A stretch of DNA of 64,000 bases from the NCBI GenBank assembly GCA_964354755.1, contig CAYHBA010000002.1, forward strand, positions 92,002 through 156,001, read 5' to 3'. The notes below the pieces were generated by a model. That model searched no databases and was not told the origin of the DNA. It worked only from the letters and a program-made list of their open reading frames with translations. Numbering within the stretch: position 1 is the stretch's first letter; the number at the start of each line of letters is the position of its first letter. A program made the position numbers and the translations under genes. Of this stretch, positions 1 through 56,815 are shown in pieces. Source of the DNA: an uncultured Thermoplasmata archaeon (GTDB taxonomy: Archaea; Thermoplasmatota; Thermoplasmata; SG8-5).

Positions 1-826
1 GACGACCTCGGCCGGGCCGTCAGCGTCGCCACCGGAGATACTGCTCAATTCGAGGCACATCGCCAGGCGCGTGGTGACTGTCCATGCCGAAGACCCGGCC
101 CAGTTCACGAGCGATGAATGCACAGACCTGCACAGCCACAGCCAGATAAGGAACCTGAAGGCCGAGACCGAGGCAGTCAGGAGCATACTGGCCATAGATA
201 CGCCCGCCACCATCAACCTGGCCCATCTCACCGCGAAGGAGAGCGTGGACATGGCCCAGAGGGGCAAGGCCAGCTTCGAGATAACGCCCCATCACATCCT
301 CCTGGACGAGGCCATGCCGCTAGGCGCGCTGGGCAAGGTCAATCCCCCGCTCAGGAAGAAGCAGATAGTGGAGAAGCTGTTTGATGTGGCGCGGTCAGGA
401 CGGGCAATAATTGCCAGCGACCATGCCCCTCATGCACTGGCCGAGAAGAAAGCTCATTTCTCCATAGCCCCCTCCGGAATCCCCGGGGTCGAGACAAGAA
501 TACCCCTAATGCTGGCCCTTGCCGAGAAAGGCATGCTGAAGCACCAGGCGGTTCAGGACATGTGCTGCCAGCTTCCGGCGGATCTGTTCGGCCTGAGGAA
601 AGGCAGGATTGCGCCGGGGTATGACGCAGACATTGCATTCTATGACATCTCAAGGGTAGTGAAGATTAAAAGTGCAGGCCTGCACTCCAAATGCGGCTGG
701 ACCCCGTTCGAGGGCTTTGACGCGATATTCCCGGCCGGCGTCATGCTCAGGGGCAGGATGATAATCCGCGGAGGACAACTGATCCTTGAAAAATCAGGGC
801 TCAATTTACTGCCACACAAAGCTTAG
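1..826 (+). CDS. Cyclic amidohydrolase, dihydroorotase-like, C-terminal part; the gene begins upstream of the window. The in-frame reading is open from nt 2.
   Basis: SDHAPH motif typical of dihydroorotase/allantoinase-type amidohydrolases. Stop codon at 824-826. Confidence 0.5.
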   Translation, partial: TTSAGPSASPPEILLNSRHIARRVVTVHAEDPAQFTSDECTDLHSHSQIRNLKAETEAVRSILAIDTPATINLAHLTAKESVDMAQRGKASFEITPHHILLDEAMPLGALGKVNPPLRKKQIVEKLFDVARSGRAIIASDHAPHALAEKKAHFSIAPSGIPGVETRIPLMLALAEKGMLKHQAVQDMCCQLPADLFGLRKGRIAPGYDADIAFYDISRVVKIKSAGLHSKCGWTPFEGFDAIFPAGVMLRGRMIIRGGQLILEKSGLNLLPHKA

Positions 827-871
827 CGACGAATCAAAGATTCGTCTGAGTCGCAGTCAAGTGTGACTGCT

Positions 872-1151
872 CCGAACGCCGGGCCATTCATGGCCTGGAT
901 GAAAGCGCAGGGCAGTAAACGTCGGTAGACCGTTGCATACCGTGAATCTGTGAGCGTCGGAAATCGAAGCCCTTCAGCTTCGATGGCTCAGGTAGGCTAC
1001 TAATGTGCTGACGCTTACCTAGATTTCCCTAAAGTCAGCAAATTTAAGTCGAATATTGAATTGGGTCATCTGATAATATTCGACGTCAGCCATATGGTAA
1101 ACTTCCGACCCTGTCCGTGAACGCCAATCCCTTTAGGGGTCGGTAGTTTAC
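872..1151. repeat. Dispersed structured repeat (family 1, copy A, diverged with an insertion of about 90 nt) abutting or overlapping the stop of the TrmY-like gene
   Basis: Shares accgttgcataccgtg, the hairpin atcgaagc/gcttcgat and the terminal stem gtaaacttccgaccc/ggggtcggtagtttac. The ag/ct to ga/tc change keeps the base pairing intact. Confidence 0.6.
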
Positions 1152-3125: not shown

Positions 3126-3218
3126 CGAGTATTTTTCTTTTAAGCCTCGCTGCGCTGGCTCGCCCTCTAAAAGAAAAATATTCAGCAAATAAGAAAATTC
3201 GGGCTCGCCTGCTCGCTC
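3126..3218 (-). terminator. T-rich terminator-like element (repeat family 2, copy 1) just 3' of the GTPase gene
   Basis: Minus-sense reads aattttcttatttgctgaatatttttcttttagag. A second copy of about 90 nt lies at 21112-21199 and includes an identical 16-mer gagtatttttctttta. Confidence 0.45.
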
Positions 3219-4144: not shown

Positions 4145-4175
4145 ATTAATAAATTGCCCAGGCAATACTGTATAT

Positions 4176-4370
4176 ATGCCGAGAACGTTCAGCACTTCAG
4201 GGCTGGGATGAATCGGCATAAGCTGTCGTCAATACACCGTTGCATGCCGTGCTTATAATATCAAAGTAAATCGAAGCCAATGGCTTCGATAAATCAGGTA
4301 TGCAACTGGCCTATGGTAAACTTCCAGCCCTGTCATCGAACGCCAGTCACTTTAGGGGCTGGTAGTTTAC
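4176..4370. repeat. Dispersed structured repeat (family 1, copy B) between the giant-protein gene 3' end and the GTPase gene start
   Basis: About 85% identical to copy C at 38098-38292. It contains a 9-bp hairpin atcgaagcc/ggcttcgat and a 15-bp terminal stem gtaaacttccagccc/gggctggtagtttac that covers the stop codon of the 4367 gene. Confidence 0.7.
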
Positions 4371-7300
4371 TCCTCGAAGTCAACCTGCACGATGCCGATC
4401 CTGCACTTTTCCCCATTCAGCTCTATCTCTCCGACATGATACTCATCCGTGCTCAAATGATCGTCCAGAGGGAAAATCACATCGTATGCATTGCATTTTT
4501 CCATTATGGTGTTCTTCGCTCCTTCCAGCGTTTCAGCGAGTGCATCGTCCGTAACCACCTGGACCTCTATCTTTGCCTCGTCCCCTATTTCGACCTCCCG
4601 CCTCATTTCCTTTATCTTGTCTATCAGCGCATTCAGAGACACATCTGACTTTACCTGCTCGGTAATCATCGTATCTATGTATATGGTTCCGGAATCAATC
4701 TCCCCCTCGAAGGCTCCGGGAGGCAGGGAGAATGATATCTGGACCATGTCGTCCGTTATGTATATCTGCTGCCCCTCGACGCCGATGGTGAATGTTCCCT
4801 TTTTGATGTTGGCCAGCAGCTTGTCCGGGGGCATGTACTGCAGGACGCTTATGATTTTCTTGGCAATGTGCTTGTATGAATTCCTAATGTGCTCTTCGTT
4901 GACATTGATTGCCGGGACAAGGCCCGCCCACACTTCGTCCCGCCTTAGAAGCTGGATGTCGAATGCATTGGCCTGTTCGAGGACGAGCGTCCTCATGTTT
5001 TCCAGCACTTCGTTCCACCGCTCGTAATCCCTGTGTCTGATGGCGACGCGGGCAAGCTTCTGTCCGGCAGGTATGCCGTGTTCCTCTCTGAGGCCGAAGA
5101 CCGCGTCCGCAATCTTGCCGACAACCTCCAGGTAGTTGTTCAGCCGCGCGTCCATTATGGCGCTGTCTTTGTCGATGCGGCCCGACCTTATCATGACATC
5201 GTACATCCTCTTCTTCAGGGAGTCTGCATCAATGTTTTCCCCGCCCTCGCCACCTGTGCTTGGTAGTGATGCCAGCTTCACGAGCATCGCCTCCATCTCG
5301 GTGAGGTATCTGGCTGCCGCCTCCATGCCGTTCTGCTCCACTGCATAGTTTATCTCGGCAATCCTTTTCTCTATGTCTTCGAACTTCTGGCCGTCTATCC
5401 CTCCGCCCCCGGCTTTTTCCAATATCGGGGCCAGGATGCTGGATTCGAGCATCGGCCTTCCATCTATTCCGGTACGGTTGACAAATATTATCTTTTTCAC
5501 AATATCCTTTATTCCTGCCAGTGCATCCATCTCCCCGTTCCAGTTCTTGAGCTCCCCCGAATAAATATTCTCTATCTCCCGGATGACTTCGGTCATGAAG
5601 AAGGGTATGTACGCGGATTCCTCGCCCGAGACTGTGATGGCTAGGAATACGTACTTTCCCTTTTCAATCAGTAGTTTATGGCCCCCGAACTCCATGCGGT
5701 CAAGCCCGCCCTTGTTCTGGATGTTGAACGCCTCCCTGATGAAGTCGGTCATTGCTTTCAGCATTGCGCTGAACAGGTCGCCATCCACCTCCTCCCGGAT
5801 GCGCCTTGTCTCTCGTGCTATGAGCAGCCCGTTGTTGTGTATCAGGAAAGCATCCTCCACAATGTAGCTGCCCTGTGTCTGGACATCGAGGTCCTTCATG
5901 TCATTCAGCTGATATTTTGTTTCATCGAAGTATCTCTGGTAAGAGGCAGATACGTCCACCTTAAGTTTGCCGTTTTTGGTTGGCCTCACTGAAACCTCGG
6001 CCCTCCTGGAACTGCCCGGCTCGATAATGTCCAGCGTGTCCGTGTCCTTTACTTCGATGTCCCCGGTGAAATTCAGGCCTATGTTCCTTGCCGGCGTATT
6101 TCCCTTATTGCTCACCACCACATCCATCCTGGACCATTTGCCGGCCTCGTGGCCCTTCGCCTCCCCAATGTCCACCTGCAGCTTGGGGTATTTATTGGCC
6201 ATAAATGCGCCTGTTCTCTCGGCCAGCCTATTCCCGATGTCCCTGAACCTGGCTTCAATATTCTCCGCTTGCATGCCGGATAGTTCGTTCTCAGTGCCCG
6301 CAACAGTGCCTTCGATGTCGGAAACGTCGACACCCATTCTTGAAGCCGCGGTCAGATTCGATTTCAGAAGGTCAAGATGCTTCAGATGCGATTCGGCAGC
6401 CATGCGCTTATCCTTCTCGTTCAGAAGATTCTTGATATCGGTCAACATCCCCCTGGTGCTTGCGTAATCCTTTTCTTCCAGCAAATTTAATAATTCTTGA
6501 AGCAGGGCATCCTCCTTTGAAATGTCGACCCCCGCAGTCTCAGCCCGTTCTATCTGGCGGCGGACAATTTCCACCTCGCTTCTCATGCTTTCCATAAGCA
6601 TTTTATCTTTTCTTTTCTCCTCCTCGCCCTCCCCCAAGGCGCTGCCGAGGCCTTCCTCCACTTTCTCTCTGATCTTGCCCATAAGTTCGCTGGCATCGCC
6701 CATCTCACCGCTGATGAGTTCCTCTTCGAAGGACATGAGCAGTTCTTTGATGTTCTTGTCAAAATCAGGAATAATGGCTCCGTTCTTAATGGCATCGAGG
6801 GCCGGTTGCAGGATGCTGTTTTCAAAGTAGGGGACGCCGGAATCGGTGTTCTTAATAAACAGTATCTTCTTAACAATGTCGTCAACGCCGGCCAGAGCAC
6901 TGATGTCCCCTTCCCAGCCAGACAGGGTTTCTCCGAATTTTTCCTCTATCTCCCCGACTATCTCCGAAATGTAGAAAGGCATGTAGACGGAATCGCTTCC
7001 GAGCAATGTGGCAGCCACGTAGAAACAGCTTCCGCGTTCGATAATCACCTGATTGTCCCCGAATTCCAGTCTGCTTAACGCGACCTTGTCTTCAAGCTTG
7101 AACGAATCTATGGCGAACTGCGAAATTGCCGTGAGCATTGCGCTGAACAGGTCGCTGTCGACATCTTCCTTTATCCTTCTGGTCTGCCTCGAGATGAGCA
7201 GTCCGTTGTTATGAATCAAGAATGCATCCTCCACAAGGTAGGTCCCGGTCTCGTCGACATCAATATCCTTCAGGTCATTGAGCTGGAATTTCGTGTCGTC

Positions 7301-8986
7301 GAAACTTTTCTCATACTGGACAGTCATGTCCAGCGGAACCTTTCCGGGTTTGAGGGGTTTCAATGCTATGACCCTGCTGTCATGCTGCCCGGGTATGAGC
7401 TTCGGAATGGTCTGCCAGCCCTTGACCTCGACATCCCCGAAGAAATTCATGTCAATGTTCTTGGCAATGCTGTTCCCGGCATTGCTGAACTGCACATTCG
7501 CCCTTCCCCATTTCTGCGCCTCAAAACCCTCTGAATTTATGCTTATCTTAAGGCGCGGATGCTTGCCAGCCACTCCGGTTTTTATGGCTCCGCTCAATGC
7601 CGCTTCGGCTTTGTTGACGATGTCCGCAATCCCGGCGCCGTGGGCATCCTCGGCCTTTGCCTTGGAAGCCAGCATCTCCGCCTCTGCGACGTCTATGCCT
7701 ATGGTCTTTGCCTCTTCAAGCATTGTGAAAAGTCCCTCAAGCTTATTCTGGGTTTCCATGGTCTGGAATCCAGACTTGTCGTCCTGAATGTGCCTTCTCA
7801 GCTCTCTGGCAAGCTCGAATGATTTGTCGAGCCGATGGCCATTCAGCGCCTCCTCAGTGTCATTAATCAGTCTGTTGATTTCCGAGGCATCGATGCCGCT
7901 CGCTGTTGCCCTGCCAGCCAGAACCTTGGAGTCTTCGAGCTCTTCCTTTATCAGGGTGACGAACCCCTCCTCCTGTTCTTTGTCCAGGCTGCCGAAGTTA
8001 ATGCCTGTGAGCTTGTCGAAAAGCTTCAGGTTCTTCACGGCCTGCTTGGCACTCAGCTCCATTGCCCGGACCTCCGTGAAGTTGCCGTCGTGCAACGCGA
8101 TGGACGCTTTCTGCAGCATTTCCTCCAGATCATCGGATTTTATTCCTGCCCGTTTAGTCTCTCTCACGAATTGTCGTATGGTCCTGAGGGTCAGGTCAGC
8201 CTCCCTGCGCAATATCACCTTTTCAATTTCCCTGCGGATTTTGTTGACATTTGTCTTGACATCTCCGAACCTTTCGTCCTCGAGCGCCTTTTTCGCCTCC
8301 TTCAGAAGAACAGCCATCTCTTTTATGTCAACGCCCGACTCGGCCACCGTGTTTATCCTGGCCTCCATGTCCAAGATGGATATCTCATAACTTTTTTGTT
8401 CCTCGGCGATGTTAAGGACAGTAGAAGTCTTCTTCACCAGTTCGGTCACAAGGTCGAAATTTCCGCCGTTGAGTGCCTGCCAGGCCTCGAGAAGGATTGT
8501 TGTTGCCTCCTGGACATTCACACCCCTCCTCTTCGCAGCTTCGACGATTGGGGCTATCCTTTGAATATGCCCCTTGGCAGTCATGAAATGTTTGGCATTG
8601 TCCGCCTCCCTTCTGGCCAGTTTTATCTGCTCGTGGGCATCACCGAAATCCCCCCTCTCCAACAGTTCCCTGGCTTTTGCAAGCAATGCCTCGGAGGCGG
8701 CGACATTGGCTCCCGCCCTCTTCGCTTTCTCAATGATGGGGAGGGAATTGAAAATCATCATATCGTATTTCTTTTTGGCCTTGGCTTGTTTCAGCATCAG
8801 GTCTATGTTGTCCATTATTTTAGTGGCCTCTGCCTCCTCCCCCTTTTGCAGGCATTTTTCCACCTCGCTGAGCAGGGCAGCGGCCATTGCTACGTCTGCT
8901 CCGTCCTTCTTCACCCTCTCAATTTGCTTCTTGGTGGCCTCTAACCTTGCCCGAAGTTTTTTCAACCCACCTTTCTTTGGTTCCAT
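4367..8986 (-). CDS. Giant 1539-aa helical-repeat protein with two tandem [CARDB/Ig-like + Roadblock/LC7-like] modules
   Basis: An internal duplication of about 265 aa spans aa 476-745 and 934-1195 (nt about 6752-7561 and 5402-6187). The two copies include YLVEDAFLIHNNGLLISRQTRRIKEDVDSDLFSAMLTAISQF and YIVEDAFLIHNNGLLIARETRRIREEVDGDLFSAMLKAMTDF. About 40-aa two-helix repeats of the form GxDVxxAxxLL fill the N-terminus and the linker regions. Confidence 0.8.
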   Translation of the reverse strand: MEPKKGGLKKLRARLEATKKQIERVKKDGADVAMAAALLSEVEKCLQKGEEAEATKIMDNIDLMLKQAKAKKKYDMMIFNSLPIIEKAKRAGANVAASEALLAKARELLERGDFGDAHEQIKLARREADNAKHFMTAKGHIQRIAPIVEAAKRRGVNVQEATTILLEAWQALNGGNFDLVTELVKKTSTVLNIAEEQKSYEISILDMEARINTVAESGVDIKEMAVLLKEAKKALEDERFGDVKTNVNKIRREIEKVILRREADLTLRTIRQFVRETKRAGIKSDDLEEMLQKASIALHDGNFTEVRAMELSAKQAVKNLKLFDKLTGINFGSLDKEQEEGFVTLIKEELEDSKVLAGRATASGIDASEINRLINDTEEALNGHRLDKSFELARELRRHIQDDKSGFQTMETQNKLEGLFTMLEEAKTIGIDVAEAEMLASKAKAEDAHGAGIADIVNKAEAALSGAIKTGVAGKHPRLKISINSEGFEAQKWGRANVQFSNAGNSIAKNIDMNFFGDVEVKGWQTIPKLIPGQHDSRVIALKPLKPGKVPLDMTVQYEKSFDDTKFQLNDLKDIDVDETGTYLVEDAFLIHNNGLLISRQTRRIKEDVDSDLFSAMLTAISQFAIDSFKLEDKVALSRLEFGDNQVIIERGSCFYVAATLLGSDSVYMPFYISEIVGEIEEKFGETLSGWEGDISALAGVDDIVKKILFIKNTDSGVPYFENSILQPALDAIKNGAIIPDFDKNIKELLMSFEEELISGEMGDASELMGKIREKVEEGLGSALGEGEEEKRKDKMLMESMRSEVEIVRRQIERAETAGVDISKEDALLQELLNLLEEKDYASTRGMLTDIKNLLNEKDKRMAAESHLKHLDLLKSNLTAASRMGVDVSDIEGTVAGTENELSGMQAENIEARFRDIGNRLAERTGAFMANKYPKLQVDIGEAKGHEAGKWSRMDVVVSNKGNTPARNIGLNFTGDIEVKDTDTLDIIEPGSSRRAEVSVRPTKNGKLKVDVSASYQRYFDETKYQLNDMKDLDVQTQGSYIVEDAFLIHNNGLLIARETRRIREEVDGDLFSAMLKAMTDFIREAFNIQNKGGLDRMEFGGHKLLIEKGKYVFLAITVSGEESAYIPFFMTEVIREIENIYSGELKNWNGEMDALAGIKDIVKKIIFVNRTGIDGRPMLESSILAPILEKAGGGGIDGQKFEDIEKRIAEINYAVEQNGMEAAARYLTEMEAMLVKLASLPSTGGEGGENIDADSLKKRMYDVMIRSGRIDKDSAIMDARLNNYLEVVGKIADAVFGLREEHGIPAGQKLARVAIRHRDYERWNEVLENMRTLVLEQANAFDIQLLRRDEVWAGLVPAINVNEEHIRNSYKHIAKKIISVLQYMPPDKLLANIKKGTFTIGVEGQQIYITDDMVQISFSLPPGAFEGEIDSGTIYIDTMITEQVKSDVSLNALIDKIKEMRREVEIGDEAKIEVQVVTDDALAETLEGAKNTIMEKCNAYDVIFPLDDHLSTDEYHVGEIELNGEKCRIGIVQVDFEE

Positions 8987-19814: not shown

Positions 19815-19835
19815 AACATTCCCTTTGTTAATGTT

Positions 19836-19860
19836 AAAGCCCGGTAATAAGGCTTTCGTC
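19836..19860 (-). promoter_or_regulatory. Shared promoter-like motif: a TTATTA TATA-like element sits inside the inverted repeat AAAGCC...GGCTTT
   Basis: Minus-sense reads gacgaaagccttattaccgggcttt about 38 nt upstream of the ATG at 19814. The same motif occurs upstream of at least four other island genes. Confidence 0.5.
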
Positions 19861-20355: not shown

Positions 20356-20370
20356 GCGCCTTTCGCCCCT

Positions 20371-20406
20371 CAAGTGAATGCGAAAGCCCGGTAATAAGGC
20401 TTTCGT
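20371..20406 (-). promoter_or_regulatory. Shared promoter-like motif copy upstream of the gene starting at 20355
   Basis: Minus-sense reads acgaaagccttattaccgggctttcgcattcacttg, followed by gaggggcgaaaggcgc and then ATG. Confidence 0.5.
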
Positions 20407-21111: not shown

Positions 21112-21199
21112 TTCTTTTAAATTTTCTCCGCTGGCTCGGGCTCTAAAGAAAAATATTCAGCAAAGAAGAAACTCGCCACTCGCCTGCTCGAAAATTCAT
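21112..21199 (-). terminator. T-rich terminator-like element (repeat family 2, copy 2) 3' of the surface-protein gene
   Basis: About 80% identical over 90 nt to the element at 3126-3218. Minus-sense is T-rich. Confidence 0.45.
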
Positions 21200-23215
21200 T
21201 TACCAATTAATTGTCCATATCGTATCCGCAACCACGTGTACCCAGTACCCTTCGCCCGGCTTCATGATGTATGTCGGGCCGGCCTCGGATATTAGGTATG
21301 GTGAGGCAGGGTCGAAGACCTCCACCCGATTCGCCCCTGTACCCCAGAGGGCGTTGGCTACTGTGGTATTATTGTTCAAGGTGGGGAAGCTGACCAGGTT
21401 CCAACCCGCGTAAAGAATGATGCTGGTGGATTGCGGTTCCGCCCCGAAAACTGTCAAGTTGCAGGCCACCGTGGCGTGTAGCCATAAACCCATCGTGTTG
21501 TCGATATAGGTGAGGTCGTTGGCTGTGCCTCCTATTCGGTATGACTTCCAAGGATCCATTTTATCTGTTGGGTCGCACCATTTCACGACATCCCATTTTC
21601 CAGAAATGGAGGACAGTACATTCTCTATTGAGGTACTGGTCATTTCGAAAGGCACAGAGACGAGGTTCCAACCAGCTATAAGTTCGATGGTGCAGACCTG
21701 TGGCAAGGGTTGCCACCGGAACAACGGGTAAGTAATACCCTCCCTCATCCACCAGATGTTTTCGAAGTCCCAGCTTACGTTAGTAAATGTGCTCTGGGTT
21801 TTCATCACGACCGTTGTTTCTCCGGTAGCGTTGCCCGCGGTGCTGTTTTGCCCGCTGGTTTCGACGTCCCAGAAGTTGCCAGTCATCTCATAGTTCCCGC
21901 CTGTGAATATGTCTCCGACAAAGCCTTTGTTCGTTGGATTTGAACCACCATAATAAATCACCTGGCCCGTGGAATAACAGTTGATGATCTTGCCTTGATA
22001 ATTTCTCGCGGCAAACCCACCGAAATACTCATTTGTCCCAGATGAACGTGTCACTGTTCCAGTGGCGTATGAATTTCTAATAGTTCCTAGATAATTCTGA
22101 CTCACTAGTCCGCCAACATACCATACACTTCCACTTACGTTTCCAGTAGCATACGATTTATTAACCGTTCCCCTATTCTGTCCTATTAAACCACCAACAT
22201 TGGATTCTCCAGTTGTGGCTCCAGTGGCATAACAAGCCCTCACTGAGCCCATATTTTCTCCTATTAAGCCACCTATATTATTGAAAGAACCAGTCACTGT
22301 TCCAATGGCGAATGAGTCAATTACAGCGCACCCCCCTAATTCGTTGTAGCCCACGAGTCCTCCCACAATAGAACCACCAATAACATTTCCCATGGCATGT
22401 GAGTTTAAAACCAGGTCTCGGTTTACTCCCACGAGCCCGCCGACACTACCACCGGTACCGCTCACATTTACAATGGCATATGAGTTGTTCACCGTGTCAT
22501 AGTTCGCTCCTATAAGCCCACCGATTCGATGTTTTCCATTCACGGTGCCTGTAGCATGTGAGTTGGCCACAATACCATAGCTGTAACCCACAAGCCCGCC
22601 AATATAATAACTACCAGTTCCACTAACGGTACCTATGGCATATGAATTTGTTATCGTACCCTGATAGTTTTGACCTACGAGCCCGCCAACATACTCGTAT
22701 CCACTCACGGTTCCAGTGCAGTATGAGTTGGTCACTGTATCACAGTTAAATCCCACCAGGCCGCCAACATTGGATCTTCCAGTGATATTGACTTCAATGA
22801 GGCCAACGTTCTTTACGAAACCCCCACTATCAATATATCCGAGGAGTCCTTGATAATTCGTACCCGTTCGGTTGATGTGCAGTCCAGTGATGGTGAAGTT
22901 CTGGCCGTCAAGACTACCGGTAAACCGATTTGGATTTGTTCCAACCGCCACGAAACCTGCGCCACTGTTCCAGTTTATAGTATCGTGCGCGTCAATGTCA
23001 TTCCCCAATGCATAATGTGCCGTTAAGTTCAAACTCATATTTTGCAGTTCCCACACATTCTCAATTATATACGGGTCCTCGACCGTTCCGGAACCCCCAG
23101 CTAAAGCGGTTACTGGTACATCTGAACTCACAACCTCATCCACACATATTCCCACAAACATGCCGCTGAGAAGCATCAGGGCAACGATATAAATTAAGAT
23201 TGACTTCTTCCACAT
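21200..23215 (-). CDS. Secreted surface protein with GLUG-motif beta-helix repeats (VGGLVG.N.G.I.NSYATG) and a duplicated C-terminal beta domain
   Basis: Signal peptide MWKKSILIYIVALMLLSG. More than 12 GGLVG/GGLIG repeats. The C-terminal GWNLVS.P...EAGPTYIMKPGEGYWVHV domain occurs twice. Confidence 0.6.
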   Translation of the reverse strand: MWKKSILIYIVALMLLSGMFVGICVDEVVSSDVPVTALAGGSGTVEDPYIIENVWELQNMSLNLTAHYALGNDIDAHDTINWNSGAGFVAVGTNPNRFTGSLDGQNFTITGLHINRTGTNYQGLLGYIDSGGFVKNVGLIEVNITGRSNVGGLVGFNCDTVTNSYCTGTVSGYEYVGGLVGQNYQGTITNSYAIGTVSGTGSYYIGGLVGYSYGIVANSHATGTVNGKHRIGGLIGANYDTVNNSYAIVNVSGTGGSVGGLVGVNRDLVLNSHAMGNVIGGSIVGGLVGYNELGGCAVIDSFAIGTVTGSFNNIGGLIGENMGSVRACYATGATTGESNVGGLIGQNRGTVNKSYATGNVSGSVWYVGGLVSQNYLGTIRNSYATGTVTRSSGTNEYFGGFAARNYQGKIINCYSTGQVIYYGGSNPTNKGFVGDIFTGGNYEMTGNFWDVETSGQNSTAGNATGETTVVMKTQSTFTNVSWDFENIWWMREGITYPLFRWQPLPQVCTIELIAGWNLVSVPFEMTSTSIENVLSSISGKWDVVKWCDPTDKMDPWKSYRIGGTANDLTYIDNTMGLWLHATVACNLTVFGAEPQSTSIILYAGWNLVSFPTLNNNTTVANALWGTGANRVEVFDPASPYLISEAGPTYIMKPGEGYWVHVVADTIWTINW

Positions 23216-23387: not shown

Positions 23388-25733
23388 CTACCAATCCACA
23401 GTCCATATTGTATCCGTTGGGACATGTACCCAGTACCCTTCGCCCGGCTTCATGATGTATGTCGGGCCGGCCTCCTTGATGTAAGGCGAAACAGAGTCGA
23501 ACGCCTCCACCCTATCCGCTCCCGTGCCCGAGAGAGCCTCTGCGACTGTCATTTCCGAATTCCGGGCCGGGTATCCGACCATGTTCCATCCTGTGTGCAG
23601 AGATATGCTTGTGGATGCGGGCATAATTCCCTCGCCTGCGGTCAGCACCCCGTCCCCGCCGTTGTCGGTGATGTGGAGCCAGATGCCCATGGTATTGTCG
23701 ATCTCCGGCATGTCGTTTGACGATGCCTGCCCTTTCTTATTGAATGATTTCCAGGGGTCCGCAGCATCCTGGGTGTCGAACCACATCGCCCGGTCCCAGG
23801 TCGTGCCGCCGTCTCCATACAATACATCGTTGAACACGGCAGTAATTCTTGTATGGACAGTCAATGGTACGGAAACGAAGGTCCAATAGCCGGTGCCGTC
23901 TCTTGACCGGTTGCTATCTGTATTCACGTCGAAAGTCTTCCAGTTGAACGGCCCTGCTTCCGGCGCAGTGCCGTTGGCAGGAATGCCGACATCATCGGCT
24001 CCGCCCTTCGCGTTCGCGATCCAGTAGAATTTACTCGGCTTTGGGCAGGGATTGGATTCGGGGGTCCAGTCGAACGAGCCATCCACACTTGCATCTGTCC
24101 CGATACAGTTCCAGTTGTCTCCGTGGTTCGTAGAATAAAACAGGTCGATTTCTGTCGGGGTTTCTGTCCAGTTATAGGTGATTGTAATGATTGGGTCGTG
24201 GCCGGCGCCCTGGGGGCCGGTGGCGGTGGCTGTTGAATTTGAATAAACCGTGACGTTTAAAGTATCAATTGAATACAAACCAGTTGTACTTGTAACATTT
24301 AAAGTCACAGTATAGACCCCTATAGATTCATATTTATGAGTTGGAGTAGAACCTATTGCGTCAATATCATTCGTTGGATTACCATCTTGATTAGTATCAA
24401 TATTAGCATTGAAATCCCAACTATAACTAAGTACTTCTGCATTTTTTGCATTATCCCATTGCCAGAGTAGATTTGAACCACCTGCTGTGGTGAACACGTA
24501 TAAAGTTCCATTTGAAGTTGCGCCAGCGTAATAATTTCCATCAAAAGAGCATGAGATATGATTGACAATTCCATTAGTATAAAAAATAGATTCTGGTGTT
24601 CCATTTGCTGGCGTGAATTGATATATTCCTCCATCTTGATTACCGCCAAAGATGTATTGACCATCAGTAGCCATATCTAATGACATACATGCCATACTGG
24701 TCACATGGGTCCAAATTGGAGAAGAACTTGAATTACTGAAAAGTCGAAACCCGTGAGAGGTAGAGGCTCCCCTAGTCTTATACTCTGCAGTGGCAATATA
24801 TTGACCATTATCTGCTGTAACCATCCCGATATGTTTCCCCAAAGATTCTGCAACCCATATACGATTTCCATTGTTATTAAATAACTGTGTATGTTGTAAA
24901 TCGCCTTGTCCCGCTGCAATTTTATTACCATAATAATCTAAAGAAATAGTATAAATTGGACAAAAATAATCAGAATTTTCAGGGAGTATTTTAAAAATGA
25001 AACCTTCTGAAATACCATAATACCGAATTTCATACCAGAATGAGCCTGCGGCAAAGTGAGTACCGTCACCCGAAAATCGAACACTCAATACGGACTGAGG
25101 GAAATCAAAAATATTTATTGGTGATCCTGAATTTGTTTCAAAGAGATAAACTTTACCTACTTTTTCCATTTGAGCTGAAATAGAGAGAAATGTTCCTAGA
25201 GCAATATAATTTCCATCACGAGTCATATCGAAGGCTCTCCGACTTGTTCCATATATGGGATAATTGGTTTGATATGTCCATATCGGTGTACTTTGATTGG
25301 TATTAAAAAAGGAAACATAACCTCTCGATTCCCAAGTATTTGATGGGTCATCATTTTGTGCGGTTGCAAGGTATGTGCCATTTTCAGAAAGAACAACAGC
25401 TACAACTGTTTTTTCAGTGTTAAATGTCCAAAGAGGCTCACTGTTGTTAAGATGAAATAAAGTAATATTTGTTCCCCATCCAATAACAATATAATTACCA
25501 TCCCCAGATATATCTACTACATTAATCGCTTGTCTGTAATTTGGATCATAAGATCCAGTTCCATTGAACTGAACGATTTCATTTACATCTACAAATTGAT
25601 CTGGACCAGCATCAGCTATTGGTGGCAATAAATTATTTATTATATTTTTATCTATGGTTGAAGAAATAACAGTGGGGCTGATGAGAAGAATAACAATTAC
25701 TATTGGTAAGAAAAATGTTCTCATACTTTTCAC
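23388..25733 (-). CDS. Secreted surface protein with beta-propeller repeats, a PKD domain and a C-terminal domain shared with the protein at 21200-23215
   Basis: Signal peptide is present. Propeller blades are YIATA- and YFAAG-type. The PKD-like segment reads TPTHKYESIGVYTVTLNVTSTTG. The last roughly 45 aa are nearly identical to the neighbour at 21200, with a 50-nt identical stretch in the DNA. Confidence 0.6.
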   Translation of the reverse strand: MKSMRTFFLPIVIVILLISPTVISSTIDKNIINNLLPPIADAGPDQFVDVNEIVQFNGTGSYDPNYRQAINVVDISGDGNYIVIGWGTNITLFHLNNSEPLWTFNTEKTVVAVVLSENGTYLATAQNDDPSNTWESRGYVSFFNTNQSTPIWTYQTNYPIYGTSRRAFDMTRDGNYIALGTFLSISAQMEKVGKVYLFETNSGSPINIFDFPQSVLSVRFSGDGTHFAAGSFWYEIRYYGISEGFIFKILPENSDYFCPIYTISLDYYGNKIAAGQGDLQHTQLFNNNGNRIWVAESLGKHIGMVTADNGQYIATAEYKTRGASTSHGFRLFSNSSSSPIWTHVTSMACMSLDMATDGQYIFGGNQDGGIYQFTPANGTPESIFYTNGIVNHISCSFDGNYYAGATSNGTLYVFTTAGGSNLLWQWDNAKNAEVLSYSWDFNANIDTNQDGNPTNDIDAIGSTPTHKYESIGVYTVTLNVTSTTGLYSIDTLNVTVYSNSTATATGPQGAGHDPIITITYNWTETPTEIDLFYSTNHGDNWNCIGTDASVDGSFDWTPESNPCPKPSKFYWIANAKGGADDVGIPANGTAPEAGPFNWKTFDVNTDSNRSRDGTGYWTFVSVPLTVHTRITAVFNDVLYGDGGTTWDRAMWFDTQDAADPWKSFNKKGQASSNDMPEIDNTMGIWLHITDNGGDGVLTAGEGIMPASTSISLHTGWNMVGYPARNSEMTVAEALSGTGADRVEAFDSVSPYIKEAGPTYIMKPGEGYWVHVPTDTIWTVDW

Positions 25734-26049: not shown

Positions 26050-26091
26050 GCCCCAAGTGAATGCGAAAACTCAGTATTAAGGGTTTCGTCG
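26050..26091 (-). promoter_or_regulatory. Shared promoter-like motif variant, about 320 nt upstream of the start at 25733 across an AT-rich leader
   Basis: ccccaagtgaatgcgaaaactcagtattaagggtttcgtcg is related to the motif at 20371-20406. Confidence 0.35.
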
Positions 26092-26673: not shown

Positions 26674-26777
26674 CGTAAATCAAGTTTCTTTTTCTTGGGT
26701 GTTTTTTTTGGTAATTGTTTGCCGCACCATGGACATGTATTCGAATCGCATTGCATGTCGCATTCTTCCTTCATCGC

Positions 26778-26813
26778 GTGTGAATGTTAAGTTCTCGTAA
26801 TAAGGTTTTCGTC
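26778..26813 (-). promoter_or_regulatory. Shared promoter-like motif variant upstream of the Cys-rich protein gene
   Basis: gtgtgaatgttaagttctcgtaataaggttttcgtc. Confidence 0.35.
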
Positions 26814-37700: not shown

Positions 37701-38097
37701 CCCGGTCAGAAAGGCTGTGTGCTTCTAAAAGGATTCCGCTGGCATGCGGCCCGCCTCTGCGCTCGTATGGGTTTTTCAGGCGTGTGCCGGGGTTTGGTAC
37801 TGGCCAAAATAACGGAGTCAATGGTTTCTCTTGGGCCAGGATGTACATCCGGCGGTTGAAACGCTCGGACTCGCCCTCAGCCCCTTGAGTCGTCGCAGGG
37901 CTCATCGTCCTGCATGGGCCTGGATTGCTCGGCGCTGAAAGCGGTCGTGCAAGCTACCAGCTGTACTGGCTTCATCTTCTTCCCGCAGCAGTTCGGAGCA
38001 TCGGCCGCATCCTTCAGCCTGCCGCATTTCTCGCATTTGTATGTTTTATCCATAATGTACGTAATCTACTTCATCCGAGATAAATGTTACTGCAACT

Positions 38098-38292
38098 ATG
38101 CCGAGAACGCTCAGCATTTCAGGGCTGTGATGAATCGGCATGAGCAGTCGTCAATCCACCGTTGCATACCGTGCATATCTTTTCGAAGAAAATCGAAGCT
38201 AGCAGGCTTCGATGGTATAGGTATGCAACTGCCCTATGGTAAATTTCCAGCCCTGCCATCAAACGCTAGTCCCTTATGGGCTGGTAGTTTAC
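38098..38292. repeat. Dispersed structured repeat (family 1, copy C) abutting the 3' end of the HerA-like gene
   Basis: About 85% identical to copy B. It carries the same two hairpins; the 9-bp hairpin has a different loop (tagcag instead of aat). Confidence 0.7.
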
Positions 38293-38293
38293 T

Positions 38294-39826
38294 CTAGTCT
38301 TCGATGATCTTGACAGACTCGCCGCCGTGCCTTGTCTCCCTGGGCCTCACTCGGACGAACAGTGGCACCTGTATGCTGCCGCCGCACACAATGGCCACGC
38401 CTATGGGCAGCTGCTGGATCTCCTTTGTCATGCCAGTGGTCAGGCCCTCGACCGAGGACGTGACTGCCTTCAGGTCCAGGTCATTGGTTATCCTGAGTAT
38501 TATCTGCGTGCCGCACTGGCTCAGAACGTTCTTCTCGACCTTTGCGGCCCTCTGGGTTATGATGACCAGACCGAGCCCGAACTTCCTGCCCTCGGACGCT
38601 ATTGTGCGCATTATCTTGGAGCAGGATGTCGTTCCCTGCTGCGGGCAGTAATTGTGCGCCTCCTCCGTCACAACCAGCATTGGCGGAATTGCGTCAATCT
38701 TGCGCATCTCGAACAGCGAGGTCAGCACCCGGTTGACTATCAGGCCGGAAATCTCCGGCGCAGTGCCCCTCAGGTTAAGGATCGTCATGTTGCCCTTTTT
38801 GACCAGCTCGTCCAGCTTGGTGCCCCTCTCGGCAAATATGTTTATCTCGTCGAGGTACTGCAATTCCTGGATGAGATTGGCGTTCTGCGCGTCCTCCTGC
38901 GCCTCCAGGGTCTTGATTATGTCCTTCATGGAGAACGACTGGCGGTTGACCTTGATCATCTCCAGGACTTTCTTCAGGGCCGGAAGGGCATGCCTCACGT
39001 TTTTCACGTTTGTCAATCCGAGGATGTCCCTGGCTTCAAGATTTCCCAGTGTGAACCTGAGCGGAGTTGCGTCCTTGTTGACCTTTGTGTCGGGCGAGAA
39101 CTCGGAAATCTGGTCGGCATAGCCGCGCGGCTTCACACCGAACTTCTCGTTGAACTCCGTGACCTTGCCTGCCTCCTTTAGAGAACTGTACTCCCCGTGC
39201 GGGTCGATCACCATCACCGTGACCTTGTGCTTGAGCAGCTCCTCCACCAGCACGCCGACCATGTAGCTCTTGCCGCCTCCTGTCTTGGCCAGGATGCTGA
39301 CGTGTTTCTGCACCATCTCGTTGATGTCCAGGTGAATGGGCAGGTCATGGCCGTTCAGCAGGCCGATGTAGGCGCCGCTCTTCTCCTTCTGTTTTATGCC
39401 GATGACCTTGGAAATGAGCTTGTCGTCCGCCCTTGTCACGGCGGAGCCGGCCTTGAAGGGCGCCTTCGGGGTCTGGAGCAAGCCTCTTTCGTCCCTGTAG
39501 CCGATAATTACAATGTTGGCCAGGACCTTCTCCTCTATGTCTATCATCTCCCCTTGGGACATGGAGATGGCCTTTTCCAGCGAGAGGTTGGTCTTCCTCT
39601 CCATGCTGTCGACCTGCCCCAGCACATGCCCGCAGGTCTCATGGGGTATCTGGACATACTCCCCGTTCTCCAGGGGGGCCATGACGCTGCACTTGAGCTC
39701 GGACGTGCCCACGTCGCCGTAGATAATGCCTATGATGCCGGAACCGTCATGGGAGTCGGCGCCATCCTCGTAATGCGCGCGGGCTTCCTCTACTGTTCCA
39801 TCCCGAGAATCCATGTCCAAGTGCAT
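38294..39826 (-). CDS. HerA-like (DUF87, FtsK/HerA superfamily) ATPase
   Basis: N-terminal HAS-barrel-like region. Walker A ILAKTGGGKSYMVG. Walker B PMLVVTEEAHNY. No NurA, Mre11 or Rad50 gene is adjacent. Confidence 0.65.
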   Translation of the reverse strand: MHLDMDSRDGTVEEARAHYEDGADSHDGSGIIGIIYGDVGTSELKCSVMAPLENGEYVQIPHETCGHVLGQVDSMERKTNLSLEKAISMSQGEMIDIEEKVLANIVIIGYRDERGLLQTPKAPFKAGSAVTRADDKLISKVIGIKQKEKSGAYIGLLNGHDLPIHLDINEMVQKHVSILAKTGGGKSYMVGVLVEELLKHKVTVMVIDPHGEYSSLKEAGKVTEFNEKFGVKPRGYADQISEFSPDTKVNKDATPLRFTLGNLEARDILGLTNVKNVRHALPALKKVLEMIKVNRQSFSMKDIIKTLEAQEDAQNANLIQELQYLDEINIFAERGTKLDELVKKGNMTILNLRGTAPEISGLIVNRVLTSLFEMRKIDAIPPMLVVTEEAHNYCPQQGTTSCSKIMRTIASEGRKFGLGLVIITQRAAKVEKNVLSQCGTQIILRITNDLDLKAVTSSVEGLTTGMTKEIQQLPIGVAIVCGGSIQVPLFVRVRPRETRHGGESVKIIED

Positions 39827-42966: not shown

Positions 42967-44202
42967 TTGGCAATGCCAATGAGAGTGCTGGTCGAGGCCT
43001 ACGGTTGCACAATGAACAGGGGCGAGGCAGAGGAGTTCGCGGACGGATTGCTGGCCGGGGGCCATGCCCTTGCGGCGGACGCTGCCGCAGCCGAAGCCTT
43101 CGCGATATTCACCTGCGGGGTCATCGACACGACGGAGCGCCGCATGCTCAGACGCATATCCGAGCTTGGGGCCACAGGAAAGCCGCTGCTGGTGTGCGGC
43201 TGCCTGCCCAACATATCCCCCAAGAAGATTCAGAAGATAGCGCCACACGCAATCCTCCTGGGCCCGGGCAGGCACATTGAGGGACTCGCCACGCTCGGTG
43301 GCGGGAAATCAACAAGCCCCGGTAACCAAAGGACTGTCGGAATGCTTCCCATCGCAAGCGGCTGCACAGGCAGCTGCGCCTACTGCATCACCAGGAAGGC
43401 GCGGGGGCAGCTGGCGAGCAGGGAGCCCGAGGCGCTCAGGGCCCGGCTCGGGGAACTGGTCGGCAGGGGGGCGGTCGAGATTCAGCTGTGTGCCCAGGAC
43501 ACGGCAGCCTACGGAGCTGACCTGGGCATCGGCCTCGGGGAGCTTGTTTCTGCGCTGTCGGCGACCGGGGGCGACTTCATGGTGCGCATCGGCATGATGA
43601 ACCCGGCCAGCGTTGTCCGGGCGAAAGTGGGAGTCATGGACGCGTTCTCCAACCCCAAAGTTTTCAAGTTCCTCCATCTGCCTGTCCAGTCGGGCTCGGA
43701 CAGGATTCTGGAATCAATGGGGCGCGGTCATACAGCTGACGAGTTCGAGGAACTGTTGTCGGAGTTCAGGTTACGGTATCCGGGCATGGCTGTTTCCACC
43801 GACATAATCACCGGATTCCCCGGGGAGACGGACAGCGATTTCGCGATGAGCATGGAACTGATTGAACGCATCAGGCCGGACATTGTGAACATAACCAGGT
43901 TCTCCTCGAGACCGGGAACTGCGGCCCACGCCATGCAGGGCAAGGTTCCGAGCCGCATATCCAAGGACAGGTCACGAATCCTGACTGAGCTGAGGTTCAG
44001 CATCACAGCCCGGAACTATGCGTCAATGAAAGGCAACGAAGTCAGAGCGCTGGCCACCGAGCGCCGCCTCTCCGGCACCACGTTCCTGAGAACACCCGAG
44101 TATAAGCCGGTCGTCGTTGGCGCGGAAATGCCCCTGGGCCGTTGGTACAACGTGAAGATAACCGGGCATGCCAAGACCCACCTTTGCGGGAAATTATTGT
44201 GA
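42967..44202 (+). CDS. Radical-SAM methylthiotransferase (MiaB/MtaB family, archaeal e-MtaB-like)
   Basis: N-terminal MTTase domain with Cys residues YGCTMN, VCGCLP and others. Radical SAM CxxxCxxC motif SGCTGSCAYC. C-terminal TRAM domain. Confidence 0.7.
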   Translation: MAMPMRVLVEAYGCTMNRGEAEEFADGLLAGGHALAADAAAAEAFAIFTCGVIDTTERRMLRRISELGATGKPLLVCGCLPNISPKKIQKIAPHAILLGPGRHIEGLATLGGGKSTSPGNQRTVGMLPIASGCTGSCAYCITRKARGQLASREPEALRARLGELVGRGAVEIQLCAQDTAAYGADLGIGLGELVSALSATGGDFMVRIGMMNPASVVRAKVGVMDAFSNPKVFKFLHLPVQSGSDRILESMGRGHTADEFEELLSEFRLRYPGMAVSTDIITGFPGETDSDFAMSMELIERIRPDIVNITRFSSRPGTAAHAMQGKVPSRISKDRSRILTELRFSITARNYASMKGNEVRALATERRLSGTTFLRTPEYKPVVVGAEMPLGRWYNVKITGHAKTHLCGKLL

Positions 44203-56359: not shown

Positions 56360-56815
56360 ATGGTCGAGCACAGGACATGCTCCTTCTGCGGCGAGGCCAT
56401 AGAACCCGGCACAGGCAAGATGTACATCAAGAAGGACGGCACGGTGTTCACATTCTGCAGCAACAAATGCAAGAAGAATAATATTAAGCTGGGGCGCGTC
56501 AACAGGCGAACTCGGTGGACCACGAGGTACGCGGAGCTAAAAAACAAGGGCCTTGACAGGGAAACAGAGGAGAAACCGGCTGAAGAGGAGAAGCCCAAAC
56601 CCATGAAGCCAGTGGCCAAGCCGGCAGCCAAACCTGCAGCCAAACCTGCAGTCAAACCTGCAGTCAAACCTGCAGATAAACCCGCAGCTAAACCGATGGG
56701 TAAACCTGCAGCCAAACCTGCAACCAAGCCTCCCCAGAAGCCAGCCGTGAAAAAGGTTCCTGCTGAGAAACCGGCTCCCGAAAAGAAGGAAAAGCCAGCC
56801 GGGAAATCAGAGTGA
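56360..56815 (+). CDS. rpl24e: Ribosomal protein L24e with a K/P/A-rich repeat tail
   Basis: [31 protein letters not shown]. The tail carries AKPAA repeats. Confidence 0.85.
56617..56741 (+). repeat. Tandem 15-nt coding repeat (gccaaacctgcagyc, about 8 copies) encoding the KPAAKPA tail of L24e
   Basis: Direct tandem repeats are visible in the sequence. Confidence 0.7.

Follow-up and report, generated by a model that had tools for sequence, protein, structure and literature searches.

Structured repeats at gene ends of an uncultured Thermoplasmata archaeon as a probable gene-less family of IS200/IS605-type elements

IS608 from Helicobacter pylori belongs to the IS200/IS605 type of 'peel and paste', single-strand DNA transposons. 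Its transposase, TnpA, cleaves on the 3′ side of a flanking TTAC located 19 nt away from the left hairpin foot, and this site is read by pairing with the guide tetranucleotide AAAG just 5′ of the foot, the third guide position being non-canonical (PMC3201880, PMC5934647). PATEs (palindrome-associated transposable elements) keep only the left and right ends of an IS200/IS605 element, and their mobilisation presumably occurs in trans (PMC3119063, PMC10055086). Here, a repeat carried by an uncultured Thermoplasmata archaeon is compared with these systems. The window, that is, the whole stretch of 64,000 nt that was analysed, is archaeal in its gene content, encoding SRP54, TrmY, the small subunit of PolD and a Ras-like GTPase.

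The repeat is present in the window as three copies, termed A, B and C, all located on the + strand (Table 1). The earlier note on this DNA had reported three copies ending in a common terminus, and a search with an 18-nt motif from the 3′ hairpin, allowing up to three mismatches, found the same three sites and no others in the window, with 0.16 matches expected by chance. An HMM built from intact relatives likewise gave no fourth copy within the window. All three copies share the 3′ terminus GGTAGTTTAC. Copies B and C show 87% identity over 199 aligned positions, and copy A is approximately 81% identical to copy B over the alignable parts. The 5′ boundaries first proposed were too internal, the true limits being those obtained from comparison with 83 relatives. 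Copy A had been described as diverged and carrying one insertion of about 90 nt; it is indeed diverged, but it contains two insertions rather than one. Its stem 2 is damaged, GGTAGGCTAC replacing GGTATGCAAC. A 127-aa ORF on the + strand (37914-38297) that crosses copy C is an artefact produced by the element; comparable spurious ORFs lie over copies at other loci (L063, L073, L095, L098, L107 and L113), and group together by clustering.

Table 1. Positions of the three repeat copies in the window and of their predicted parts
Feature	Position	Strand	Remark
Copy A, 5′ flanking target motif TTTAC (TAM)	805..809	+	same TTTAC/TGCC junction in type-3 relatives L006, L025, L033, L059 and L116
Copy A, degenerate, 342 nt, type-3 left end	810..1151	+	secondary insertions 824-872 and 1002-1090
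Copy A, right-end hairpin GTAAACTTCCGACCC...GGGTCGGTAGTTTAC	1097..1151	+	
Copy B, flanking motif ATAC	4165..4168	+	TTAC with first T changed
Copy B, whole	4169..4370	+	
Copy B, left-end module, 5′ TGTATATATGCCGAG	4169..4226	+	
Copy B, putative guide tetranucleotide AACG	4184-4187	+	+16 to +19 of the element
Copy B, left hairpin	4188-4207	+	conserved GATGAA at 4207-4212
Copy B, outer helix	4175-4182 paired with 4213-4220	+	
Copy B, putative central cargo domain	4227..4314	+	stem 2 = 4237-4248 with 4297-4309
Copy B, hairpin ATCGAAGCC-AAT-GGCTTCGAT	4270-4290	+	inside stem 2
Copy B, right-end hairpin GTAAACTTCCAGCCC...GGGCTGGTAGTTTAC	4316..4370	+	folded as DNA, z -3.95
Copy C, flanking target motif TTAC	38087..38090	+	
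Copy C, intact-looking 202-nt type-1 element	38091..38292	+	
Copy C, left end	38091-38148	+	putative guide AACG 38106-38109; hairpin 38110-38129
Copy C, central domain	38149-38237	+	
Copy C, right-end hairpin	38239-38292	+	

Beyond the window, in a pattern scan covering one genome per species, the repeat was confined to Methanomassiliicoccales/Thermoplasmata MAGs, with about 20 matches in E21_metabat.bin.9, nine in UBA280, four at contig ends in S2_100 and one in UBA147. Four bacterial matches to the pattern showed odd spacing and were attributed to chance. The right-end pattern was found in 106 further stretches of metagenome contigs, most of them from the well-assembled genome Ga0180732, and in none of the viral contigs scanned. 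When 1.19 Mb of MAG and metagenome sequence chosen around copies was searched with nhmmer, about 250 full or partial matches were obtained in at least five Methanomassiliicoccales-type assemblies, with at least about 66 matches on seven contigs of the single assembly Ga0180732. The genes beside copies were found to be unrelated housekeeping genes (Pfam on 20 flanking ORFs), and all-vs-all ORF clustering of the loci gave no ORF recurring beside copies, the only clusters being TPR, PAS, ABC and surface-protein paralogues and syntenic genes. ORFs inside the elements are short and overlapping only, and own coding capacity is absent. Rfam 15 gave no match except tRNAs in the window, for copy B at E up to 10, or in 17 related loci, at gathering and permissive thresholds. 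The abundance of the repeat, its unrelated neighbours and the lack of a recurrent ORF thus identify it as a high-copy, gene-less dispersed element.

The ends of this element are well defined. Aligned copies start with TG and end with GTTTAC. The left flank of type-1 copies is TTAC or TTTAC, with C at -1 in 43 of 43 copies, A at -2 in 40, T at -3 in 42 and T at -4 in 41; across left-end types it reads TTAC, TTTAC, TTTAT or TTTAG. Flank conservation is limited to these four to five left positions, the right flank being variable. No terminal inverted repeats were found in the 83 aligned copies, the 5′ end TGCACAAATGCC being unrelated to the reverse complement of the 3′ end, GTAAACTACCAG. A target-site duplication is also absent, as copies with TTTAT or TTTAG on the left (types 1b and 2) still have TTTAC as their right end. 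Of the three options offered by the earlier note, only the MITE-like element fits, and with both inverted termini and duplications lacking it is not the plain MITE that the note had named as a refuting case; its ends follow the single-strand scheme of IS200/IS605. Tandem copies with one common TTTAC (L001, L018, L021 and L022) and nested copies inserted after TTTAG (L013 and L098) were observed, the nested insertions with no host bases gained. A boundary at TTTA^C, which would place the -1 base within the element, is ruled out by the nested insertions in L098 and L013, since host bases balance only with the -1 base counted as host DNA and the terminal C as part of the element.

The family is modular, with four left-end types, two central-stem alleles and short or long right-end loops being freely combined. 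At least nine mini-elements of 113 nt consist of the left hairpin module and the right hairpin and nothing else, indicating that the central domain is unneeded for spread. About eight solo right-end hairpins were also found, and many copies carry large insertions in the right-end loop. Element orientation runs in blocks along contigs (heterogeneity p = 0.006, on small counts), as expected for insertion into one replication strand.

Both conserved hairpins described for the window copies are present, as are the compensatory change in copy A (CCAGCCC/GGGCTGG to CCGACCC/GGGTCGG) and the T:G pair in copy C. Two helices had been missed, namely a 5′ hairpin (4175-4220 in copy B) and the 10-bp stem, listed as stem 2 in Table 1, that encloses the ATCGAAGC hairpin. 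The + strand of copies B and C was found to fold with z of -5.5 and -4.9, compared with -3.75 and -3.1 for the - strand. The proposal of a conserved structure with covariation was tested on 83 distinct copies and holds family-wide: standard pairs occupy 89.9% of cells, against 26-38% with partners slid; 30 of 58 pairs show compensatory changes on both sides; and the covariation score is 0.265, against at most 0.079 in slid controls, with no shuffle reaching these values. The left hairpin (helix 4) is 95.8% paired, and seven of its eight pairs covary, several positions showing five or six pair types. In the right hairpin (helix 9) pairing reaches 98.8%, and its base GTAAAC/GTTTAC is invariant in sequence. 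Both hairpins fold as DNA and have CAGCCC...GGGCTG in common. In four well-supported core helices, G.U cells outnumber A.C cells by 124 to 21, which marks the + strand, bearing TTAC, as the strand on which pairing matters. The structure had also been taken as a pointer to RNA on the ground that hitchhiking could not explain it; this argument fails, because the ends of single-stranded DNA transposons face the same structural selection.

The central stem occurs as two main alleles, GUUGCAU/AUGCAAC or GCCAUGC/GCAUGGC, together with minor compensatory variants, and these alleles recombine freely with left-end types. In Ga0180732, the 5′ arm of this stem (GCCATGCATCGTG) was observed to be expanded to two to six or more tandem copies of the 33-nt unit CATGCTCATATGCATGACCTGCCATGCATCGTG at loci L046, L047, L050, L074, L090, L091, L100 and L134.

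A further covariation crosses the boundary of the element. The last flank base (-1) and the base at +19, at the 5′ foot of the left hairpin, form Watson-Crick pairs in 114 of 134 cases (C:G 57, G:C 42, T:A 13 and A:T 2), a relation shown for the left end only. Because the -1 base is host DNA, this covariation joins target DNA to an internal base of the element; an RNA lying wholly inside the element is thereby excluded as its cause, whereas the IS608 mechanism predicts such covariation. Type 1 has the putative guide tetranucleotides AACG, AAAG and AATG, type 1b has AAAA, and type 2 has AACC or AACT, the third position being the variable one here. The left hairpin foot lies 19 nt from the junction, or 18 nt in type 2. 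The conserved internal loop GAAC/GAUGAA is better explained as an IS608-type guide together with the 3′ flank of the hairpin. A K-turn, a C/D box and a hammerhead were considered for this loop and rejected on inspection, as their strand geometry does not fit. A group II intron, suggested by a GUG...AY resemblance of the boundaries, was rejected for the small size of the element and the lack of a domain 5.

These observations are best explained if the repeat is a non-autonomous IS200/IS605-type element, a PATE, an assignment that is held with good confidence, and the element most likely moves as single-stranded DNA in the manner of IS608. The family itself is new but belongs to a known kind of element, rather than representing a new RNA gene. 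The assignment is drawn from DNA features, namely the boundaries, the absence of inverted termini and target-site duplications, the modules, the covariation, the nested and tandem copies and the strand asymmetry; from these we infer the enzyme and the chemistry of transposition. A Y1 HUH transposase acting in trans would excise a unit of about 202 nt, 5′-TGCAYAAATGCCGAG...GGGCTGGTAGTTTAC-3′, from a single DNA strand and insert it into a single strand, in both cases the + strand in the orientation given here. On the left, cleavage would occur at the flanking TTAC, recognised through pairing with the guide (AACG or AAAG), which lies just 5′ of the left hairpin and 19 nt within the element; on the right, it would occur at the terminal TTTAC, which forms a helix with GTAAAC at the base of the right hairpin. 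The element would be inserted 3′ of TTAC without duplication, and its end would recreate TTAC. The central stem-2 domain would be cargo unneeded for transposition and probably kept through its self-folding; the role favoured here is that of a spacer which folds on itself and so brings both ends near each other in single-stranded DNA. The strong compensatory change in the central stem is, however, not obviously required by transposition alone, and counts against a plain PATE.

Each copy in the window had been described as abutting the stop codon of a minus-strand gene, which is borne out in all three cases. The TAA stop (1148-1150) of the TrmY-like gene (1148-1735) is the TTA of the copy A terminus, the TAA stop (4367-4369) of the giant gene (4367-8986, 1539 aa) is the TTA of the copy B terminus, and the TAG stop (38294-38296) of the HerA-like gene lies 2 nt past the end of copy C. 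As a defining feature of the repeat, stop-codon contact does not stand: of 168 distinct 3′ ends, no more than 27 provide the TAA for an ORF of 100 codons or longer on the opposite strand, with six more within 3 nt and 13 at 4-30 nt, while TTTAC sites outside elements form such opposite-strand stops in 106 of 1595 cases. Stop contact is enriched yet far from universal, and the three of three in the window are a small-sample impression. Many copies sit between convergent genes. That copies touch stop codons is attributed to the TTTAC end, which regenerates the opposite-strand TAA. As TTAC is the complement of GTAA, insertion on an opposite-strand TAA would shift the old stop to the left flank, and the element's own TTTAC would supply a new TAA at the same place, leaving the opposite gene unchanged. 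Copies inserted there would therefore survive, and we infer a selective filter of this kind at stop codons; with insertion at TTAC and a TTTAC terminus, the element can occupy TAA stops without harm to the gene.

The window loci also bear on the state before insertion. The + strand gene at 71-826 has its TAG stop (824-826) in the 5′ part of copy A, and when copy A is taken out, TTA CGG TGA is reconstructed on reading the sequence, indicating that two convergent genes originally overlapped; the + strand gene now ends four codons later, inside copy A. The orthologous HerA 3′ end in L127 reads ...CCACTTAC|ATTCAGTCTTCGAT, with TTAC at the corresponding point and no element detected by nhmmer. As an empty site for copy C this locus is suggestive only, the left flanks being about 72% identical and too diverged to align. 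At copy B, the giant Roadblock-domain gene and the GTPase gene flank the element, and were about 20 nt apart before insertion. The TATATAT beside this copy, previously listed as a separate TATA-like site, is the diverged 5′ end of the copy itself: positions 4169-4180 read TGTATATATGCC, the family consensus being TGCAYAAATGCC. On the minus strand, ATATATA lies 27-33 nt upstream of the ATG of the Ras-like GTPase (gene start 4144), and the diverged 5′ end may now act as the TATA box of this gene.

Other repeats were noted alongside. A second family (GGATACCCCAATGCTTTAGCTTTGGGGAGCACTCATT...), absent from the window, often abuts the TTTAC/TTAAT end of the first family or sits inside first-family copies (L009:39-65, L029:88-114, L030:7533-7559 and L034:3737-3763; also L023, L107 and L127), which suggests an element with a similar target. 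In the window, a 39-nt motif ending in the hairpin AAAGCCCGGTAATAAGGCTTTCGT is present in five copies (19821-19859, 20368-20406, 26051-26089, 26774-26812 and 44076-44114). Repeats of GAGAAAAAGAGGGACGATTTC are located near the 39-nt motifs (19184, 23248 and 26074), and adjoin paralogous minus-strand genes that share 87% identity at their 3′ ends (21201-21286 and 23389-23474). A 46-nt A-rich direct repeat, AAAGAAAAATATTCAGCAAA..CTCGCCTGCTCG, is intergenic at 3170-3215 and 21145-21190 (85% identity), and a 12-nt tandem repeat, AAACCTGCAGCC, of at least nine units (56594-56752) lies in a coding region, where it encodes a low-complexity stretch of the K-P-A-A type.

A partner transposase was sought in the 1.19 Mb around copies. 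Neither tnpA nor tnpB was found beside any copy by ORF clustering and regex scans, the patterns YHxVxxxKYR for TnpA and TSQxCxxCG for TnpB giving nothing real, and tblastn with the E. coli IS609 protein InsQ gave only chance zinc-ribbon matches for TnpB, in a search of limited sensitivity over partly sampled genomes. One Y1 transposase gene was obtained by tblastn with E. coli IS609 proteins, on Ga0180732 contig L093, which also carries a copy of the repeat. This gene (Pfam Y1_Tnp, E 3.3e-25) contains one frameshift, and matching end hairpins were not found around it; that no transposase gene bounded by the ends of the family turned up in this sequence counts against the assignment. Intact Y1_Tnp homologues, up to 89-90% identical, occur in related metagenomes and Thermoplasmata MAGs; no family elements or hairpins were found within 2-3 kb of them in four contexts. 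In three lineages the homologues lie beside a DUF4258-MazE pair, and this Y1 gene looks single-copy and syntenic rather than mobile. The Y1 transposase and the DUF4258-MazE-like toxin-antitoxin pair are located at L093:292-1334, L145:2363-3447 and L151:779-2486, with 66-90% protein identity; L145 and L150 also contain a second, partial Y1_Tnp fragment.

Could the repeat instead be an RNA? The main reading of the earlier note was a structured RNA, or a 3′-UTR or terminator module, kept by the host at gene ends, and the stop codons touched by all three window copies, the + strand fold with z of about -5, the covariation with its G.U asymmetry and the many copies between convergent genes would all suit it. 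The structured strand, however, is antisense to the genes whose stops are touched, stop contact is seen in only 16-20% of the 168 ends, and a flank base covaries with an internal base, beyond the reach of an element-encoded RNA. Copies are moreover tandem, nested, truncated and modular, some are located in promoter regions (L125), and a match in Rfam is lacking. With covariation between flank and interior and stop contact in a minority of copies, neither the ncRNA nor the 3′-UTR/terminator version is supported as the primary explanation, and we regard both as very unlikely. A PATE that also encodes the omega-RNA scaffold of TnpB would retain the transposition mechanism proposed above: a + strand transcript of the central domain together with the right-end hairpin, about 135 nt, would run into the flank for its guide, and a TnpB nuclease acting in trans would cut empty donor sites. 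In size and in its position, with an end precisely at the right terminus, this segment is like omega-RNA scaffolds; PATEs are described as frequent carriers of omega-RNAs (PMC10055086), and the central domain shows compensatory changes and a plus-strand G.U bias, though the mini-elements transpose without it. Such an addition is nevertheless judged unlikely, given that TnpB was not found in the 1.19 Mb by motif scan or by tblastn with InsQ, that Rfam gave no match at either threshold, that no internal promoter was evident on reading the sequences, that many copies have either stem 2 expanded in its 5′ arm by 33-nt tandem units or the right-end loop enlarged by long insertions, and that the central stem has essentially two alleles recombining freely with left-end types.

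Rather unlikely, in our estimate, is a broader alternative in which the central stem and right hairpin are functional RNA cargo, for instance a hitherto undescribed archaeal guide-RNA scaffold serving a TnpB-like nuclease in trans, or in which the family is driven by the single domesticated Y1 enzyme beside the toxin-antitoxin pair; the latter case, if true, would be an archaeal counterpart of REPIN-RAYT systems. Movement by another class of mobile element, be it a classical MITE moved by a DDE enzyme, an IS110-type element with a bridge RNA or an IS91/Helitron-like rolling-circle element, is extremely improbable. The right-end hairpin GTAAACTTCCAGCCC/GGGCTGGTAGTTTAC alone resembles a 15-bp inverted-repeat pair and exists in solo form, but the whole element has neither the inverted termini nor the duplication of a classical MITE. 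The short motif common to the left flank and the right end is reminiscent of an IS110 'core', but many copies combine a left flank other than TTTAC with an unchanged right end, and conservation of 4-5 nt of target is far below the 11-14 nt or more of a bridge-RNA target. Both the position of the guide and the spacing of 19 nt agree with IS608 in particular.

With this reading, an apparent 'structured RNA at gene ends' becomes a mobile-element family of uncultured Methanomassiliicoccales-type archaea, which matters for annotation, as units of 113-340 nt would otherwise be called ncRNAs, terminators or spurious ORFs, such as the one over copy C. The PATEs of Haloquadratum walsbyi and Geobacillus stearothermophilus are likewise gene-less, multi-copy IS200/IS605 derivatives; they differ in sequence family and host lineage, the present family has a conserved, covarying central stem, and a parent IS with the same ends was not found in the 1.19 Mb. 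REP sequences and REPINs are also short, hairpin-forming intergenic repeats of high copy number, presumably mobilised by a single-copy Y1 HUH enzyme, the RAYT (TnpA_REP), and the solo right-end hairpins found here are REP-like; the sole Y1_Tnp lineage found here is single-copy with conserved synteny. The unit described here, in contrast, is an asymmetric one whose left and right ends differ and whose target motif is defined, and the Y1_Tnp genes are not flanked by family hairpins. The omega-RNA (reRNA) of TnpB is similarly a structured segment of about 130-200 nt on the top strand ending at the right end of a transposon, whereas the domain here comes with no TnpB found and no match to a known RNA family, and tolerates large insertions and repeat expansions.

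What does the family share with IS608 and the IS200/IS605 group? Comparison revealed the following common features: 1) insertion 3′ of TTAC without duplication or inverted termini, 2) subterminal hairpins at both ends, 3) a 4-nt guide 5′ of the foot of the left hairpin (AAAG in IS608, AACG or AAAG here) with 19-nt spacing, and 4) pairing of the last guide base with the last target base. A single active strand, as in IS608, would also fit the G.U bias and the orientation of copies, both of them indirect observations. Unlike IS608, the element carries neither tnpA nor tnpB, its host is an archaeon, and an extra outer helix surrounds the left hairpin. The right cleavage motif of IS608 is TCAA, whereas here the putative motif TTTAC is held in a perfect antiparallel helix of 6-7 bp with GTAAAC, and is not read by a 4-nt guide of the AANG type as in IS608; this difference counts against the assignment. 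The family also differs in having several left-end subtypes, with the targets TTAC, TTTAT, TTTAG and TTTAA. These four subtypes, each with a guide base matching its own target base, provide a natural test of the IS608 rule, and parallel in nature the 'guide resetting' experiments with IS608.
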